From: Octopus sinensis | Lineage: Eukaryota | Direction: 5' to 3' | Assembly (NCBI RefSeq): GCF_006345805.1 | Contig: NW_021832226.1 | Location: forward strand, 186,001-250,000 | DNA length: 64,000 nt | Shown: one piece after another, positions 1,696 to 25,422 of the stretch | How positions within the stretch are numbered: the first letter of the stretch is position 1 | Layout: each line of letters starts with the position of its first letter | The notes under the pieces: generated by a model | What the model was told of the DNA's origin: nothing | Seen by the model: only the letters and a program-made list of their open reading frames with translations | The model's database searches: none | Program-made: the position numbers and the translations under genes

Positions 1696-3448
1696 TTAAT
1701 ACTTTGTAAAGTATCCGTTATTCTCCAAAACTGCATTTAAGCGATTTTTATAATTGTTAACAAGCTTTTTACAAGTTTCAACAGGAATTTTATTCCATTC
1801 TTCAAAACAAAATGATTTTAATTCCGCAATACAGTATAACCTCCATTTGGGGCAGACCTCTGGCTTGGGGAACCTCTATTTTTGGGGAAACCTCTATTTT
1901 TGGGGTAGTTTGAAAAGGATATAATTTTTATGCGGTAATTTCCAAATTTAGAAATTACCGAACCTCTAAGTGGGGCACAGGATTTTTAATTTATATACAT
2001 ATTTGCTATTAAAATTAAAATTAATTATATAAAATTTCATTTGGAAGCCTCGTGTAATTTTTGTATTCTTGTTGTTATGGCTCGTAAGCTTAGTCTTGAG
2101 TTAAAGATCAAAATTGCCAAGGAATTAAGTGAAAATAAACATCTTACTGAACGAGATATTGTAGATAAGTACAAAATTAGTAAAGGTTTTTTATTAATGT
2201 AAGTTTTTAGGCGCTGTGTCACGTATTAAAAAAATTATCTCAATTTTTTTAATACTGGGGCTGTTCAAACAGATTTTCCCAGAAATATTCAACGCTCTCC
2301 TCATACTTTATCCCAAAAATTGGATAAAATTGTTTTTGAGGCTTTCACCAAGACAAGGGAAGAATTTATTCCTGTGTCCGGTCCTCTTTTAAAACATGTT
2401 TAAATGTTCTTAAAAATACTTTATTTATTTATAAATTAATGAAAAATATGCTAAACTATTAAAATTTTTATAAAAATAAAGAAAATTTCAGACCTCCATT
2501 TTTGGGGAAACCTCTATTTTTGGGGCAATTTTTCAAAATTGATGCCCCAAATGGAGGTTATACTTATTTTTTTGGATTATGCGCCGCATACTTTGGCTTT
2601 TAATTCCTTCCAAAGGTTTTCAATCGGATTAAGATCTGGGGACTGACTTGGCCATTCAAGGGTATCAATCAAATGTTCTTCTAGCCATTTTTGAGTTTTT
2701 TTTGCGCTGTGCTTTGGATCATTGTCTTGTTGAATGTCCAATTTTCTGCAATACCACATTTCTCATTGACGAAAATAGATTTTTTTCCAAAATATCACAG
2801 TATTTAGAAGCATTCAATATTCCGTCAATTACATGAAGTTCTCCACGCCCCCAAGAAGAAAAAACCCCCCATAGCATAATACTGCCACCTCCATGTTTAA
2901 CTGTTGGTATGGTATTTTTTGGACGATATTCATCCTTCGATTTACGCCACACGTAGCTTGTATAATTGTGTCCAAAAATTTCTATCTTTGTTTCATCCGA
3001 CCAAATAATATTATTTAGAAAGTCGTCGTCTTTAAGTAAAATTTTTTTGGCATATTTTAGCCGTGCATGGACGTGTTTCTTAGTAAGCAGCGGAACTTTA
3101 CGTGGACGACATTTATGGAACCCTTCTTTTCTTAGGGCATTTGTAACAGTCTGTGAGCATACTGGTGTTCCTATCTCACCAAGTAAGTAGAGAGTTGTTT
3201 ACGAGATAATCTCGGATTATCAAGCACTTTTCGTCTAATTATGGAAATTGATCGAGATGATATTTTTTGGTTGTCCTGATCTTGGCTTATTTTTGGTAGT
3301 TTTAAATAATTTTCATTTATTGATAATGTTCCATACTGTACTCTTCGGAATATGAACACTTTCGGAAATTTTTCGGATTGAGTTTCCTGCATTATATTCA
3401 AGAAGTATAATTTTTTATTTCTTCTGAATGTTCCTTTCGCTTAAGCAT
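1696..3448 (-). pseudogene. Tc1 transposase, frameshifted and interrupted by a Tigger-derived element
   Basis: ATG at 3448 gives MLKRKEHSEEI...GNSIRKISESVHIPKSTVW (HTH). Also [21 protein letters not shown]...[11 protein letters not shown] (D-34-E spacing) and C-terminal GYFTKY*. Confidence 0.9.
1832..2564 (+). mobile_element. Internally deleted Tigger/pogo element nested in the Tc1 transposase
   Basis: TIR CAGTATAACCTCCATTTGGGGCA and TGCCCCAAATGGAGGTTATACT, TA-flanked. Subterminal ACCTCTATTTTTGGGG repeats. HTH-like remnant MARKLSLELKIKIAKEL... from about 2078. Confidence 0.85.
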
Positions 3449-3496
3449 GTACAAAATATTAATCGCAAATAATGCTAATAATCATCTTAATAAAAT

Positions 3497-3580
3497 ATGG
3501 CTAGAACAAAACAAACGGCTCGAAAATCTACTGGTGCAAAAGTACCAAGGAAACAGTTGTCTGCAAAATCTGCTCGCAAG
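3497..3580 (+). other. Histone H3 N-terminal tail coding segment (residues 1-27), without the histone fold
   Basis: [28 protein letters not shown] versus canonical [28 protein letters not shown]: 22 of 27 identical. The frame continues into LINE sequence until 3868. Confidence 0.93.
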
Positions 3581-5310
3581 CTGTCTGCACTAAGAAGACT
3601 ATGCAGAAGTGGAGGCGTTCCCGCTTCGCACTCCCCGGAGGACAAGACGGTTCAGTGTGCCACTACGATGAACTGCCGGAGCCGTGGTTCACCGCCACGT
3701 GCTTCCGGCTATTCTAGTGGTGTTTTTAATTCTTTAGGTCAAAGCAGGAGGTCGAAGCCTGGACCCTCCCAGATGGGTTCAGCACTCACTGAAGACTCTT
3801 CTCCCCTGCTCCCCCTTTGGCTGGTGTCGGGGGAGCAGCAGCTGCAACAGGTACTAATTGTTTGGTAGCCACGACAACCGCACAGCATGCTGGTTCGCCA
3901 CGTGTTTGCGGTTTGTCTAGTGGTGCCAAACCCAGCCTAGGTAAGTCAATTAATGCCAACAGGGTGTCGTCTCCTGAGGCCGTCCCGGTGGGTACGGCAG
4001 GAAATAAGGTTGCCCTTGAGGACGGTTGGTACACGGTGGGGAAACCCAAACGTGCGGCTGGCCGTCCAACCCCCCCTAATGTTTTAGGTACTGGTGTGTG
4101 TGTATCAGGTGGATGCACACCCAAAGAAGACCACTGGCGCCGGGGGCAGAATTACCTTCGGTGCTGTGGCACGACTTGAGGTCCTCCCTACAAGTGGGAA
4201 GGCCTCGGTCATAAAGATCTTAGGTACGTTAGACTCTATCCAGCCTTCAAAGCTGTATAGAGTCCTGAAGAGGGAGCCCACCCAATTCCTGCTTGGGTGG
4301 GAGAAGGAGGAGGACTTCTTCAGCTTTAAAGAGAGCTGGAGAAGTCCAGCCCGTTCGGTCCTGGCATGCATCGGCTTGTCAGGATTGAACAAAAGGTAAG
4401 GCAGGTAAGAGTCCTGCTCCTCGGGGTCCCCCGGGACTTCGAGGATAATGACCTTTTAGGACACATACAGCGGGAGTACCCCAGTGCCCTGCCTTGCACG
4501 CTTCAAGCAGGGTAACCGCCCTCTTGAAGTGGTGGAGGTCATCCTGGGATCTCCTGCGGAAGCCGAGCGCCTAGTACTTCTGGGTACTAGGATCGGCTAC
4601 ATTAGGATGAGAGCTGCCTGGCCCGCCCGAAAGCCACCCAATGCTTTCGGTGTCAGGGGTTCGGGCACATCTCCACAAAGTGCCCGGATAAGGCGAAGTG
4701 CCTTATTTGCGGTGGGGAGCATGGTCGCAAGACGTGCCCCTCACCATCCAAGGAGAGGCAGTGTGTCAACTGTGGTAAGTTGGGACACACTGCCAATTTC
4801 AGAGGTTGCCCCAAGTTCAAGGAGGCAACCCGAAAGGTAGGTGGGGATGTAATCCCAACAGTAAGTCGCCCGCGTCGCGTCGCGCGCCCTGCGCCAAAAC
4901 CTGGCAAGCAGGCGATACTGGCCAAACCTTCCAAATCCGTTTGGGTGGCGAAGACAGTGGAACCTGTGAGCCATGCTACGTGTGGGTCGGTGCAGCCTTC
5001 GCCGACAAAGTTGGCAAAGCAGGTGAAAGCTTCCGAGTCCGCTTGGTTGCCTAAGCCGGCAATGCCTTCTGAGGCGGCTAACGGCGGCGCCGTCCGGCAC
5101 AACCTGGGGCTGAAAAGGCGTCCTCCATACGTGGAGATGCCATTGCACTCAGCCCCTGGCGAGCGTGTACCGCAGGACAGTATTAGTCCTGCGGTGCAAT
5201 TATGCGTTTCCCTATTAAAATTTTGTAGGGAGATGAATTGCAGTGTAGAGGAAATGCTACACTGCAACGTTGCCGAGGCCAAGAAGATCCTTGGCGAAGA
5301 ACCGATATGA
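3497..5310 (+). pseudogene. LINE ORF1 (gag-like), frameshifted in this copy
   Basis: Pieces in alternating frames: H3 tail, DGWYTVGKPKR, LLGVPRDF, then QCFRCQGFGHISTKC / CLICGGEHGRKTC / CVNCGKLGHTANFRGC (about 4639-4810). Ends GEEPI* at 5310. Confidence 0.85.
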
Positions 5311-7908
5311 TGCTCAACATCATATCGGTGAACGCGCGTTCCTTGGAAGGAAAAGGGACGCCGTTCAGAGGATGTTGGCCACCACGAGTGCGGACATTCT
5401 GGTGGTCAACGAAACGAAGGTAAAGGGGGGTCCGTACGTAGTTGATGGCTACAACTGTCGTCACATACCCTGGAAACAGGGGTCAATATGTGGCACAGGA
5501 ACTAGCCTCTTCTACAAGCCCTACCTTGCCTTGCAGAGTCCAGGTTATGTTCATGTAGCTTGTGTGAATTCCTCCAAGTGAGAATTCGCATAGGCGAGTT
5601 AACATTTTACCTAGGTGGGATGTACTCGAAGAACTTTACGGCGTGCTCCTGGCACGTACGGGAGTTCTTTGAAAAGCATCCGAAGGCCATGGTTGTTGGG
5701 GACCTGAATGCCAAGCATCAAGATCTTGGTTTCAGGGTAACCAACTCGCATGGTTTGGCTCTGAAGACGCTGGTTGAAGACCTCGGGCTGGAAATCCGGA
5801 CTTCGAGCGAGCCAAACCACGTCGACGCGAGGGGAGGACGTGACTGGCTAGGGCTTGCTCTGGTCAGTCCCGGTCTTCTAAATTGGGTTAGTAAAACTAT
5901 TTTATTGTCCGATATTGGGAGCGACCATCTGCCTCTATTGCACGAACTCCGTGAGCCAGTTCCTCAAAGGGTCCCAGGATACTTTGACCTCCGGGTGGGT
6001 TCCTGGGCTAACCTGGAGAGTTTCATGGCCAGCAGGTTGCCCTCACTTCTGGTGGGGAATACCTGCGCCAACATACGTGAGTTGGAGGCGCTTGATAATG
6101 GAATCAATGCTGCCCTGACTGATTACATGCGAGATAATTTCAAACAAAACTCAGTGCAGGGTCAGGCACATTCCACGCTCCCTCACCGGATCTTAAATAA
6201 AATTAGGTTCAAGCGCCGGCTATCCAGACTACGGGACAAATGCGTTTACGAGGAGAACCGTGTTTGGTTTCGTGGCTGGATTAGCCGGCTTCAGAGGGAG
6301 ATCCGAAGAGAAATCCGCGAACTCGAAAGTTCGCGGTGGGAGAGGGCCTGCCGAAGGGTGGACCCTCGCTTTCCGGACTTCTGGAAGCAGTTGAAGAGCC
6401 TGTCGGGGAGAAGGGGGGCTAAGTCAGTGCGCCTTAAACGCTCTGATGGAACCCTCGCTTCGGACCCGGTTGAGGTGGTTGAAATACTTTCAGCCCATCT
6501 CAATGGCATCTCGGGAACTGACGGAAGTCAGTTCGTAGAGACATCGTCCTTTGATACTGTCCAGCAGATATTGTCGTGGGACAAGCGCTGCCAGCTGGGC
6601 ATATCAAGGAACGATGCAGGCGAAATTACTGAAGCGGAGATTCTGGCAGCAATCTCCCGAAGTAAGAACACCGCGGCGGGTTTGGATCGGATCCCGATGG
6701 CCATCTTTAAGAAGGCCCCGCCGCGGTTAATCACTGCACTAAAGGTTTTATTTAACGGGAGCTTGCGACTTGGGATGATTCCCTCCAGGTGGAAAGTGGC
6801 TGAGGTAATCCTTATCGGAAAGCCCGGGAAGCCACATGATGTCCCCGGGGGATATAGGCCCATTTCCTTGCTCCCCGCAATATCTAAAATCCTAGAAAGA
6901 ATTATGCACCAAAGGCTCCTGGAGGAGCTGATGGTTGCAGACGCCCTCCCTGAGTTCCAATGGGGCTTCAGGGAGGGCCGCTCATGCGGGGACTGCCTTC
7001 ACAAGGTGTCGTCTGGTATGAAGAACGCCCTCCAGAAAAGGGAATGCGGTATTTTAGTTAGTCTCGACATTGAAAAGGCCTTTGACTCGGTGTGGCACGA
7101 CGGCCTCCGGAGTTCCCTTGCCACGTGTGGGGTTTCTCCGTGTCTAAGGCGCTGGCTGTCGGGGTTTCTTGAATCTCGCAGGCAGGTCGTGCGGCATCAG
7201 GGGGTCTTTTCTAAAGTCGCAACAGTCCTTCGCGGGGTCCCTCAGGGCTCTGTGCTCAGTCCGACACTATTCAATGTGTTTATGGCCACTGCGCCTATGC
7301 CAGTCAATGCTCGTACTGAAATGGTAATCTATGCAGACGACATTATCCTCTGGGATCACTCAATGAAACCGGAGTGTGCGTGTCGTAGGCTTCAGGTTGC
7401 TGTGGATGGACTTGCAAACTGGTGTGGGAGTAGGGGTCTGAGAATGTGCGCGGACAAGTGCAGTGTCCTTAAAGTCTGTAAAAGGACGAGGGGTTACACT
7501 AATTTTGTTCCTAGGTTATTGCTGAGCGGGTCAGCAATCGCTGCAGTTGATCGGATGACTTATTTGGGCGTGCTCTTTAAGCCGTCCGGTAAGTTTGATG
7601 ATCACATTGCACGTACGAAAATGCGTGCAATGCAGCGATTAGGTGCGTTGCGTGCTTTCCGCTTGAGCAGAGGTGCCTGGTTCCGCGTGTTTAACGCCAT
7701 GGTGTTACCCGTCTTGACCTATGGCGTCCACGCTTGGTACCTCTATGAGGACAGGGATAAGCATGTTGACGTGCTTAAAAAAGTAAGAAGACGAGCCATA
7801 AGGCTAGCCTATGGCTTAGGATTCCGGACTGAGCTCTCCGACGCCCAGGAATCATCTCTCAAAGGCCTCTCTGAGGTCCTAGAGAAGATTATTTCTGGAT
7901 GGCAGTAA
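5307..7908 (+). pseudogene. LINE ORF2: APE endonuclease plus reverse transcriptase, with about two frameshifts near the N-terminus
   Basis: MMLNIISVNARSL, DILVVNETK, GDLNAKH and GSDHLPL (APE). YRPISLL, QWGFREGRS, LDIEKAFDSVWH, GVPQGSVLSP and YADD (RT). Open for 782 aa from 5560 to 7908. Confidence 0.93.
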
Positions 7909-8399
7909 GGCGGTAAGTCTTAACCTGTGGTTGTGTGTAGGGAGGCGTGTGTGAGATGGAGACTGAAAAGGCAGCGATGCCGAAGGTCTACTTAGTTAGT
8001 TTTTAACTCCCTTAACTAATAATGTTTTTTCCCGGAATTAGTATAATTTCGTTGATCGATATGTAGATCAATTCAATTATTTTTCAAAAAGTAAATAAAT
8101 AACAACTGTCCAAGACTAATTGGAACATGATATTCTATCTGTTGGAATAAATGTGAAATTTTCTATAAATAAAACGAATTTTGTAATTTTTTTATGATCT
8201 AGGATTAAGAAAACTAGAGCACTATTATACTATTGGAAAAAATTAAATAAAAACAGCTATGTTAACGAAAATAAAATTTTATTAAAAATAAACAAGTGTC
8301 CCAAGACTAATTTGACCCACTGTAGTAACCTAAAATACAATAGTAAGATTGATTTTCTTAGTTTTTAAAAAGAATTATGTAGGAGGTATCATTTAATGA

Positions 8400-9316: not shown

Positions 9317-10086
9317 CAGGGTATTTCATTAATATATCCTCTAATTTCATAAATATATCCTCTAATTTCATAAATAAATCCTCTTATTCCATAAATATAT
9401 CCTCTTATTTCATAAATATATCGTATAATTTCATCAATATATCCTCTTATTTCATAAATATATCGAATATTATAAATAATTATATAATGTAGTAATTCTT
9501 GTAGTAATGTTCGTATGTCGTATACGTATATTTCAAGTTACATTAACAAAGACCAACTTTTAATTTAAAAAACAAATTTTAATTAATTCTGTTAATAATC
9601 GCATTCACTCTATTCCAAAATGACCGGTAGTACTCGGTAAACATTGAATTAGAAGAAAGCGATTGTATAACATCTTTTAATTTTCTTTTAAAGCCTTCTG
9701 ATTCATAGCTCTTGACGTATTGAATTCAGATTCGCATTTATTGTCCCAAATACATTTTCGATAGGATTTAAGTCAGGTGAATAAGGAGGTAAAAACAAAT
9801 ACTCAACACTATGTGTTTCGAAAAAATTAACAACATTTGAAGAATGATGAAATTTAACATTATCTAAAATTATCACAGAATCATCAGTGACATCACACAG
9901 AATCATCACAATAAAACGATATATTTATGAAATAAGAGGATATTTATAGGAAATTATACGATATATTTATGAAATAAGAGGATATATTTATGAAATTAGG
10001 AGATATATTTATGGAATAAGAGAATTTATTTATGAAATCAGAGGATATATTTATGAAATTAGAGGATATATTAATGAAATACCCTG
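9317..10086 (-). mobile_element. IS630/Tc1-type non-autonomous element with long TIRs built of about 22-bp tandem units
   Basis: TA-CAGGGTATTTCATTAATATATCCTC...GAAATACCCTG-TA. Tandem ATAAATATATCCTCTTATTTC-like units at both ends in inverted orientation. Internal LDNVKFHH...[12 protein letters not shown] remnant. Confidence 0.85.
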
Positions 10087-16987: not shown

Positions 16988-20045
<3,058 letters not shown>

Positions 20046-23661: not shown

Positions 23662-25422
23662 GAAGAAGAAGAATATGGTTTATTTAATACAATAGGTCCA
23701 AAAGAAAAGTGGCCAAGGAATTAGAGCTTAGGGGGGCATGATAACGAGAGCCACGAAGGTCTCAACTTCGGTTTTGCCCCAGGAGACTGTCTTATTTCCC
23801 TCAGCGAATTCGAGTTTTTGCCAGGATCGCGTCAATCGTGTCAACACTCCGCTCATGCAGGTCTTCCAGCGGACTGCTGAGCTCCAGGCCGAATGCCAGT
23901 TTGATGGCAAATCGTCTGGTTTTTCGAGTTTGGCGATTAGAAGGTCCCTTTCATCAGTTTGGTACCAGCCTTCCGAACCATAGATTATTAGTGGCTGAAC
24001 ACAAGTCTGGTAGATGTGTAGAAACGTTTCTGCGCTCAGACAAAAACGCCTCAGGCCTTTTAGGATTTTCGCTCCTTGTTTCCGCTTTGCATGCACATGG
24101 GGTTTGTATGACCCGGTGGGGTCTATAGTTACTCCCAGGTAACGTAGGTTCTTCGATATAATCAGGTTCCCATAATCCTCGAAAGTCGGTTTTTTGTCAC
24201 GACCCATTGAAATCCAACAAATGGTACTTTTGTCCAGAGCGAGATTCAAGCCTTTACCATTGCACCAGATTTCAAGTTCCTCCAAGTACGGTTCTGGTCT
24301 GCTCCAGAGTCTGCTCCAGAGTCGGATCGGACAACCTTCTTCTGTGTCGGGGTCCCCACATCGAGACATCCGTAACCAAGATATCGTCCGCGTAGATAAT
24401 TAGTCTGCTCGTAGGAAAATGTGGTTTCGGGACGTCGGCCAGAAATATATTAAAGAGCAAGGGGCTGAGAACCGATCCCTGAGGAACACCTCTCCTCAGA
24501 TTAACGGCCTTCGATAGCAAATTTCCACAACGAATGAACGATTTTCTCTCGCACAAGAAGTCCTTAAGCCATCTGATAGTTTTTCGCCTAGCACCCAACT
24601 CCGCTACTTTATCTAACAACCCCAAGTGCCAGACACTGTCAAAGGCCTTGCAGACGTCCAGGCAGACCGCCGTTAGGCAGGCTTTATGGAGTTTGGCCCG
24701 AGTCAGTTCTTCCTCAAGAAGCGAGAAACAGTGACCGGTTGATCGACCAGGTCTAAAACCCCACTGTTCCTCCGCGAGTATATTATTTTGTTCCACGTAA
24801 GCCGATAAACGATTGAAAATAATTCTTTCCATTATCCTCGACGTTGTGCAGATAAGGCTAATTGGCCTATAACTTCCTGCCTGCGTATTTGGTTTTCCAG
24901 GTTTTGGGATCATTCGGACGATTGTTCGTTTCCAGCTAGGTGGGACGTGACCATTGTCCCAACTGGCATTGAATAGTTTTACCAGAATACGAAGCAAGCA
25001 TCCGGGTGCCTTCTTGAACACCTCCATAGGGATGAAGTCAAATCCAGGAGCGTTGTTCTTGCAACCTCTGATTGCTTCGAACGTCTCTTCCGTGGTTATT
25101 TCCCTGCACAAGGGTCCATCCAAAACAAGTTTTGAGCGGGAATTTCGGGTCGACTCCTCGAATATTTTCAGAGGCAGGATAGACGAAGGGTCCACCTCCT
25201 GAATCCCTGCTAGCTGCTGGCGGAAGACCTCCGGGACTTCCTCAGTAGGAACAAAGCCTCCATCCACCGATTTAAGAATGATTTCTTCTCCTTTTGCTTC
25301 CGTCCCGTTCATTATTTTGTATAGTTTCCAGAATTTAGGATTTTTCTTGTTGAGTTTTAAGCATTCTCTCTTCCATGTCTCATCTGTGTTAGCTTTAGTC
25401 AGCTCGTCGATCCGTCGATCCG
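23662..25422 (-). mobile_element. 5'-truncated LINE (RT) related to the 3483-8015 element
   Basis: 14-bp TSD AAAATCCTCAATAA at 23648-23661 and 25423-25436. (TTC)4 3' tail on the minus strand. YRPISL, QWGFRPGRS, GVPQGSVLSP and YADD. Confidence 0.9.

Follow-up and report, generated by a model that had tools for sequence, protein, structure and literature searches.

APE-type LINEs of the I group typically end in an A-rich or simple-repeat tail and are flanked by a short target-site duplication (TSD), and R9, an rDNA-specific non-LTR element of rotifers, makes an exceptionally long TSD of fixed length, 126 bp. Tx1 families have reportedly been noted in histone genes, but a search of the literature did not bear this out. 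That search, confined to published articles, listed no histone-targeting or histone-headed LINE, and the excerpted text of PMC10328876 and PMC6136364 contains nothing on either. The targets named for R2, Utopia, Keno and similar elements are rRNA, snRNA, tRNA and spliced-leader genes, transposons, microsatellites and telomeres; histone genes go unnamed in the excerpts, where R2 is described as relying on a host promoter (PMC4640811, PMC4494074). For the melanogaster-type R1 element, which is APE-type and resides in 28S rDNA, the excerpted source infers transcripts whose target-derived 5′ sequence, 7-28 bp of it at off-target copies, makes precise 5′ joining possible, and it also describes variable second-strand cleavage, tandem arrays and duplications of at most 17 bp (PMC2718515). 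The Dictyostelium elements TRE5 and TRE3 live in a compact genome and insert at a set distance from the starts of multicopy genes, a habit that several families evolved in parallel, according to excerpts of PMC5006619 and PMC3159450.

The LINE described here resembles each of these systems, as the excerpts portray them, in part. Like R1, it carries target sequence at its 5′ end. Unlike R1, which occupies one rDNA site and carries a short non-coding piece, it hits four protein-coding genes, its piece measures ~95-170 nt and provides an ATG and an N-terminus, and its duplications reach 1.2 kb. Like R2, Utopia and Keno, it finds its niche in a multicopy gene family; however, whereas R1, R2, Tx1 and Utopia each have a single base-precise target, its junctions are spread from −9 to −56 ahead of four unrelated genes. 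Like TRE5 and TRE3, it keeps a set distance and orientation, but its targets are histone genes in place of tRNA genes with their Pol III factors, and capture of host coding sequence is unreported in the excerpts on the Dictyostelium elements. Since it has neither a single target base nor a tRNA gene as its target, it is a member of neither the R1/R2 type nor the TRE5 type. We consider it probable, from comparisons at the level of sequence, that this APE-type LINE prefers sites upstream of histone ATGs and that its ORF1 bears an in-frame histone N-terminus, a head that likely arose from long TSDs and likely lends the element a promoter and a start codon.

Results

The window, by which we mean the whole 64,000-nucleotide stretch of DNA that was analysed, contains a copy of the LINE inserted in a Tc1-like element. 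Its parts are as follows.

2568..3485 (more at 1464-1831), strand unassigned: Tc1-like element, left part, recipient of the insertion; 96-98% identity to uninterrupted copies
3488..3496, + strand: H3 5′ UTR remnant, putative head start of the mobilised unit; 9-nt match to the UTR of H3 paralog A
3497..3580, + strand: H3 codons M0-K27, in the frame of LINE ORF1; 84/84 to H3 paralog A, junction common to 29 copies
3581..3589, + strand: LSA codons, probably left over from H3 Q19-A22 by a previous capture; RQLSA in H2B-headed copies
3587..3619, + strand: apparent relic of H4 codons 33-43; 27/33 nt, the H4 peptide compared being AIRRLCRRGGV
3497..5310, + strand: ORF1, with three CCHC knuckles at ~4642-4810; broken in the window copy by single-base indels
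5307..7908, + strand: ORF2, APE endonuclease and reverse transcriptase (Pfam PF03372, PF14529, PF00078), RNase H hit absent
7909..8033, + strand: 3′ UTR and terminal T-run/C-run tail, the tail resembling the H2B promoter stretch from TATA to start
8032..8324, strand unassigned: Tc1-like element, right part, from empty-site comparison

The H3 piece in the window copy is real and is part of a recurrent family. GC content jumps from ~0.33 over 3401-3600 to 0.55-0.6 in the LINE body, in keeping with the host-like, A-rich start and GC-rich body described in a first-pass annotation of this DNA, and H3 identity ends at 3580, as abruptly after K27 as that annotation had it. Ahead of the ATG, a match to the H3 5′ UTR is found only for 3488-3496; 3475-3485 are no leader and belong to the Tc1-like transposon. 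The indels of the window copy lie mostly at short runs. In comparison with empty Tc1-like sites, the insertion deleted 11-18 nt of target and duplicated none, and AATAATG, a candidate short TSD, was rejected in view of these empty sites and of the 3′ end that the copies share. Elsewhere in the window, further APE-RT LINE fragments lie on the minus strand at 23728-25312 and 726-1205, and two 21-bp tandem arrays, at 9323-9464 and 9910-10081, are reverse complements of one another and resemble the subterminal repeats of DNA transposons.

By its architecture the element is a putative member of the APE-type, Jockey-like LINEs of the I group. The three ORF1 knuckles are recognised by sequence and give PF00098 hits, and the Atlas clusters nearest to ORF1 include PRE_C2HC Gag-like proteins. 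ORF2 of the intact copy L124 comprises APE and RT, again with the RNase H hit absent, and its 19 RT homologues, nearly all of them unnamed, are 24-32% identical.

Which gene donated the head? Positions 3497-3580 show no mismatch in 84 bases to paralog A of the H3 genes on small contigs and five to paralog B, and canonical H3 of the large contigs is ~82% identical across these 28 aa. By this comparison the head was donated by the divergent small-contig H3 and not by the canonical H3 of the large contigs, and the earlier proposal of a host H3 gene as the source, one that has both the variant tail and the UTR, is borne out.

The headed copies form a family. Positions 3475-3700 have 42 matches in the assembly, of which 29 span head and LINE, 8 contain LINE only and 5 contain H3 only. 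When the first 200 LINE bases were used as the query, 37 of 38 matches began at base 1 or 2; inspection of 30 of those loci revealed that the eight copies without H3 carry H2B codons 1-25 and two more, fused in frame to the very LINE base at which the H3 heads are joined. Across the retrieved loci there are 28 H3 heads, 8 H2B heads and 6 H4 heads, the last with two junctions: H4 codons 1-53 are joined in frame deeper into ORF1, and a sister subfamily has H4 codons 1-49. A second LINE family, with an ORF2 ~32% identical to that of the first, has a head of H2B codons 1-53. All five distinct histone-ORF1 fusions observed, H3(28), H2B(25+2), H4(53), H4(49) and H2B(53), are in frame. There were no H2A heads among the ORF1 matches in the retrieved loci, although H2A starts are insertion targets. 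In other organisms, none of 169 ORF1 and ORF2 homologues showed a histone head at E<0.1, and a word-based search with the ORF1 query gave no match.

Several relatives and rearranged copies were seen alongside this family. A sister LINE with the same ORF1, a different and shorter 3′ part and an A/T tail end (G000:C13428, C4396, C9068) is likewise located ahead of an H2B or H4 start, with one copy lying within H2B. At L113 (G000:C10743:23038, + strand), H4 codons 1-70 read in frame into a 5′-truncated ORF2 fragment. Head-to-head inverted pairs with common flanks, at G000:C11576:26311 and 30453 and at C12441:74562 and 74696, are perhaps fold-back rearrangements or assembly artefacts.

The 5′ ends of the heads resemble mRNA starts. 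Away from promoters, the UTR that is kept measures 12-13 nt in 14 of the 28 H3 heads, 14 nt in three H2B heads and 11-12 nt in three H4 heads, as would be expected if the dispersed unit begins where the mRNA does; the suggestion of the first-pass annotation that the mobilised unit opens at a histone start site fits these copies well. Some headed copies also sit behind histone promoters: at C2287, C10250, C8744 and C2131 a native promoter stands ahead of the head, so that transcription from it, as suggested in the same annotation, would be possible. Both LINE subfamilies are found with the heads of both H3 paralogs at one and the same junction, a pattern that fits the homology-assisted 5′ joining proposed, in the excerpted text, for melanogaster-type R1 (PMC2718515).

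Is the histone ATG used? One intact H2B-headed copy (G000:C10696) has a 579-aa ORF1 that starts from it, followed by an 878-aa ORF2 frame. In the H3-headed copies a full ORF1 is absent across the assembly, the longest being 362 aa; since breaks of this kind also interrupt 12 of 22 whole H3 genes, they likely reflect assembly error. The first internal Met of ORF1 is LINE codon 30, and some relatives lack a head and have a Met of their own, so the lineage as a whole does not need the head. In LINE codons 1-29, ahead of that Met, the subfamilies differ by five synonymous and three non-synonymous changes. These changes, together with the fact that every fusion is in frame, would lend weak support to translation from the histone ATG, both counts being small.

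Beyond the head, the start of ORF1 contains what appear to be older layers of histone sequence. LINE bases 7-39 agree with H4 codons 33-43 at 27 of 33 nt, where H3 reaches 16 of 33 at best and none of 200 codon shuffles exceeds 21, and the differences from H4 comprise four synonymous and two non-synonymous changes. The GGV tripeptide, which had been equated with H3 G33-G34-V35, is therefore best read as an older relic of H4. The repeat reported on both sides of the junction is present, as TGTCTGCA at 3558-3565 and again at 3582-3589, and is accounted for if LSA, whose position is occupied by RQLSA in the H2B-headed copies, is a relic of H3 Q19-A22. The second LINE family contains the same H3/H4 join, with exact H3 matches of 26 and 15 nt, and its head is a mosaic of exact 11-26 nt pieces from H2B, H3 and H4. 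To judge by these layers, histone capture occurred many times.

Where does the LINE insert? Of 47 LINE 3′ ends, 26 fall in the 5′ regions of histone genes, in sense orientation, against a background of 7% for 3000 random window positions, and after one chance hit was dropped 25 of 47 remain, 9-56 nt before a histone ATG and in sense. Removal of duplicates by hand (7 on-target, 5 off-target) leaves 18 of 35; 15 of these 18 independent 3′ ends fall between −9 and −23 relative to the start codon of H2A, H2B, H3 or H4, and all are in sense. Two rows that the script had assigned to H2A in fact have H4 downstream. The remaining 17 of 35, or about half, are off target, and orphan H2B-type promoter fragments account for 3 of the 17. 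The idea of an H3-targeting LINE therefore holds as regards a preference for histone loci but not as regards H3 itself, because the starts of H2A, H2B, H3 and H4 are all targets and H2B and H4 heads exist as well. The LINE 3′ tail looks like the part of the native H2B promoter that runs from TATA to the start, and on the strength of this likeness pairing between the RNA and its target may contribute part of the histone bias. As for the coupling to S phase that the first-pass annotation suggested for the element, an Rfam scan of six histone-locus stretches (55,849 bases) found no family at threshold, histone stem-loop included, and downstream of the stop codons of H3 and H4 there is an AATAAA.

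Other repeats share these surroundings. A second I-group family with tails of (TTCCA)n, (TTCA)n or (TTCG)n (G000:C10743, C10250, C8744, C12441; L061-L078, L111-L116) also has 3′ ends directly ahead of H3, H2B and H4 starts, as do RTE-like elements, which suggests that the niche is common to several families. About two dozen orphan H2B-type promoter fragments (L197-L221) are followed by unrelated sequence and preceded by a shared repeat, and some host LINE insertions. Repeated truncated H3-like starts (MARTQQ...), with the promoter present and the histone fold absent, occur in several copies at G000:C12441, C10250 and C8884.

Long direct repeats abut some of the insertions, with lengths of 277, 341 and 487 bp at 100% identity and of 325, 571 and 1225 bp at 98% identity. 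Of 48 3′ ends, seven have a long duplication outside the head, representing six insertions at five sites (one insertion was doubled by tandem duplication), and at three more the duplication passes through the head. An abutting duplication is absent at the other 38, the window copy included, of which eight have a left flank shorter than 900 bp. In the 277-bp case the target repeat was compared in 11 empty copies, and in all 11 the segment occurs a single time between its two neighbours, from which it follows that the insertion made the duplication; for the 1225-bp case, the search for empty sites found no full one. A 64-bp match at C11576 was rejected because it does not abut the element. With a T-run/C-run tail, no short abutting duplication in 15 pairs and long ones at six insertions, the LINE departs from the typical I-group pattern. 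It shares long TSDs with rotifer R9, but its own vary from 277 to 1225 bp. Within H2B coding sequence there are left joins at codon 6 and codon ~92, and these look like intermediates of a promoter-grafting insertion. A clean case in which promoter, head and LINE are followed by the whole of the same gene was not found, and most cluster copies have mismatched flanks.

Discussion

How might a histone N-terminus come to head ORF1? Six observations were made directly: the target bias, the three head types, the reading frame, the six insertions with long duplications, the promoter-linked copies and the 11-14 nt starts. We propose that the first nick would cut a histone promoter downstream of its TATA element but ahead of the start site, and that the 5′ end of the LINE would be joined tens to hundreds of bases downstream, within the coding sequence. 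The left side would then retain promoter, UTR and N-terminal codons, and a promoterless whole gene would stand after the LINE 3′ end. An in-frame join would give a chimeric mRNA and hence a histone-headed ORF1, establishing a new master whose copies would take the head elsewhere, for example to the Tc1-like element of the window. Upon re-insertion at a histone gene, the head would pair with the local paralog, so that paralog alleles would be swapped while the junction is kept, and repeated rounds would produce the stacked H4, H3 and H2B relics. A bolder extension can be imagined, though we think it less likely than not: a promoterless LINE lineage would live on Pol II histone start sites, where it would dock and make kilobase-scale duplications that at once rebuild the coding sequence of the histone and supply ORF1 with promoter, ATG and tail; the end of its RNA would be a copy of the H2B promoter that aids priming; heads would be swapped among histones and LINE families; and the tail may mimic a histone and guide the return.

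The heads could instead have been acquired by reverse transcriptase switching template from LINE RNA to abundant histone mRNAs, as in U6-L1 chimeras, with chimeras that later came to lie behind a promoter being amplified. The mRNA-like 5′ ends of the heads and the short homologies at some joins speak for such a switch, and a route of this kind is proposed for snRNA-headed SINEs in the excerpts of PMC4494074. Nevertheless, we regard it as unlikely: the headed copies bear only histone heads, from the very genes that are targeted, and the long duplications provide a simpler route. U6-L1 chimeras are independent copies with a junction each, whereas the 28 H3-headed and 8 H2B-headed copies have one junction per head. 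The one-off form of the switch, which the first-pass annotation had thought the simpler alternative, is excluded because 29 copies share the same H3-LINE junction. That annotation also considered a LINE lodged at H3 codon 27/28 and followed by the remainder of the gene, which would suit the single fixed junction after K27 and the copies behind H3 promoters, but this is scarcely credible when 0 of 47 3′ ends resume at codon 28 and H3, never a LINE tail, stands ahead of all 25 exact H3 codon-28 sequences of the assembly.

The remaining alternatives do without targeted capture or place its benefit in the protein. Insertion may have been untargeted, with copies persisting in the redundant histone arrays of a compact genome and array recombination building the chimeras; the arrays are indeed rich in duplications, inversions and nested LINEs from three families, and 17 of 35 independent 3′ ends lie outside histone starts. 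Untargeted insertion is very unlikely, however, to have bunched the junctions in sense within ~15 nt before the ATG in place of a spread over coding and spacer DNA, or to have left the heads of dispersed copies cut at one position. Alternatively, the tail may be retained for what it does as a protein, with ORF1 as a mimic of H3 (K4, K9 and K27 intact) that binds readers of histones, chaperones or importins and so steers the particle towards histone loci or blunts silencing. Every fusion is in frame and basic tails return over several rounds of capture, as such mimicry would have it, yet the need for an ATG explains the frame equally well, the H3, H2B and H4 heads are each copied without sharing a common sequence, and they are unaltered copies of genes, all of which makes mimicry highly improbable as the reason for the heads.

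If the preferred reading of promoter and ATG capture through long TSDs is true, target-specific non-LTR retrotransposition reaches a protein-coding Pol II gene family, beyond RNA genes, and a mobile element draws on its target for a fresh promoter and start codon. The variable duplications of 0.3-1.2 kb are relevant to the mechanism of second-strand cleavage and priming, and they would offer a direct path for host coding sequence into ORF1.

Finally, whose DNA is this? Public sources file the small-contig H3, H2A and H4 proteins under Octopus sinensis. We consider it likely that the owner of these contigs is a dicyemid parasite sequenced together with its octopus host, given that exact LINE 3′ ends are restricted to small contigs (44 of 44), that the histones there are very divergent and that the introns are tiny, and we flag that genes of a parasite are likely stored in public databases under the name of its host. 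Median intron length is 27 bp in dicyemids, and the mean in D. japonicum is 38 bp, as given in excerpts of PMC6543705 and PMC6736024, respectively. In the DEAH helicase gene at window positions 17790-20045, the path with the fewest introns has eight, of 23-34 nt, with approximate boundaries.
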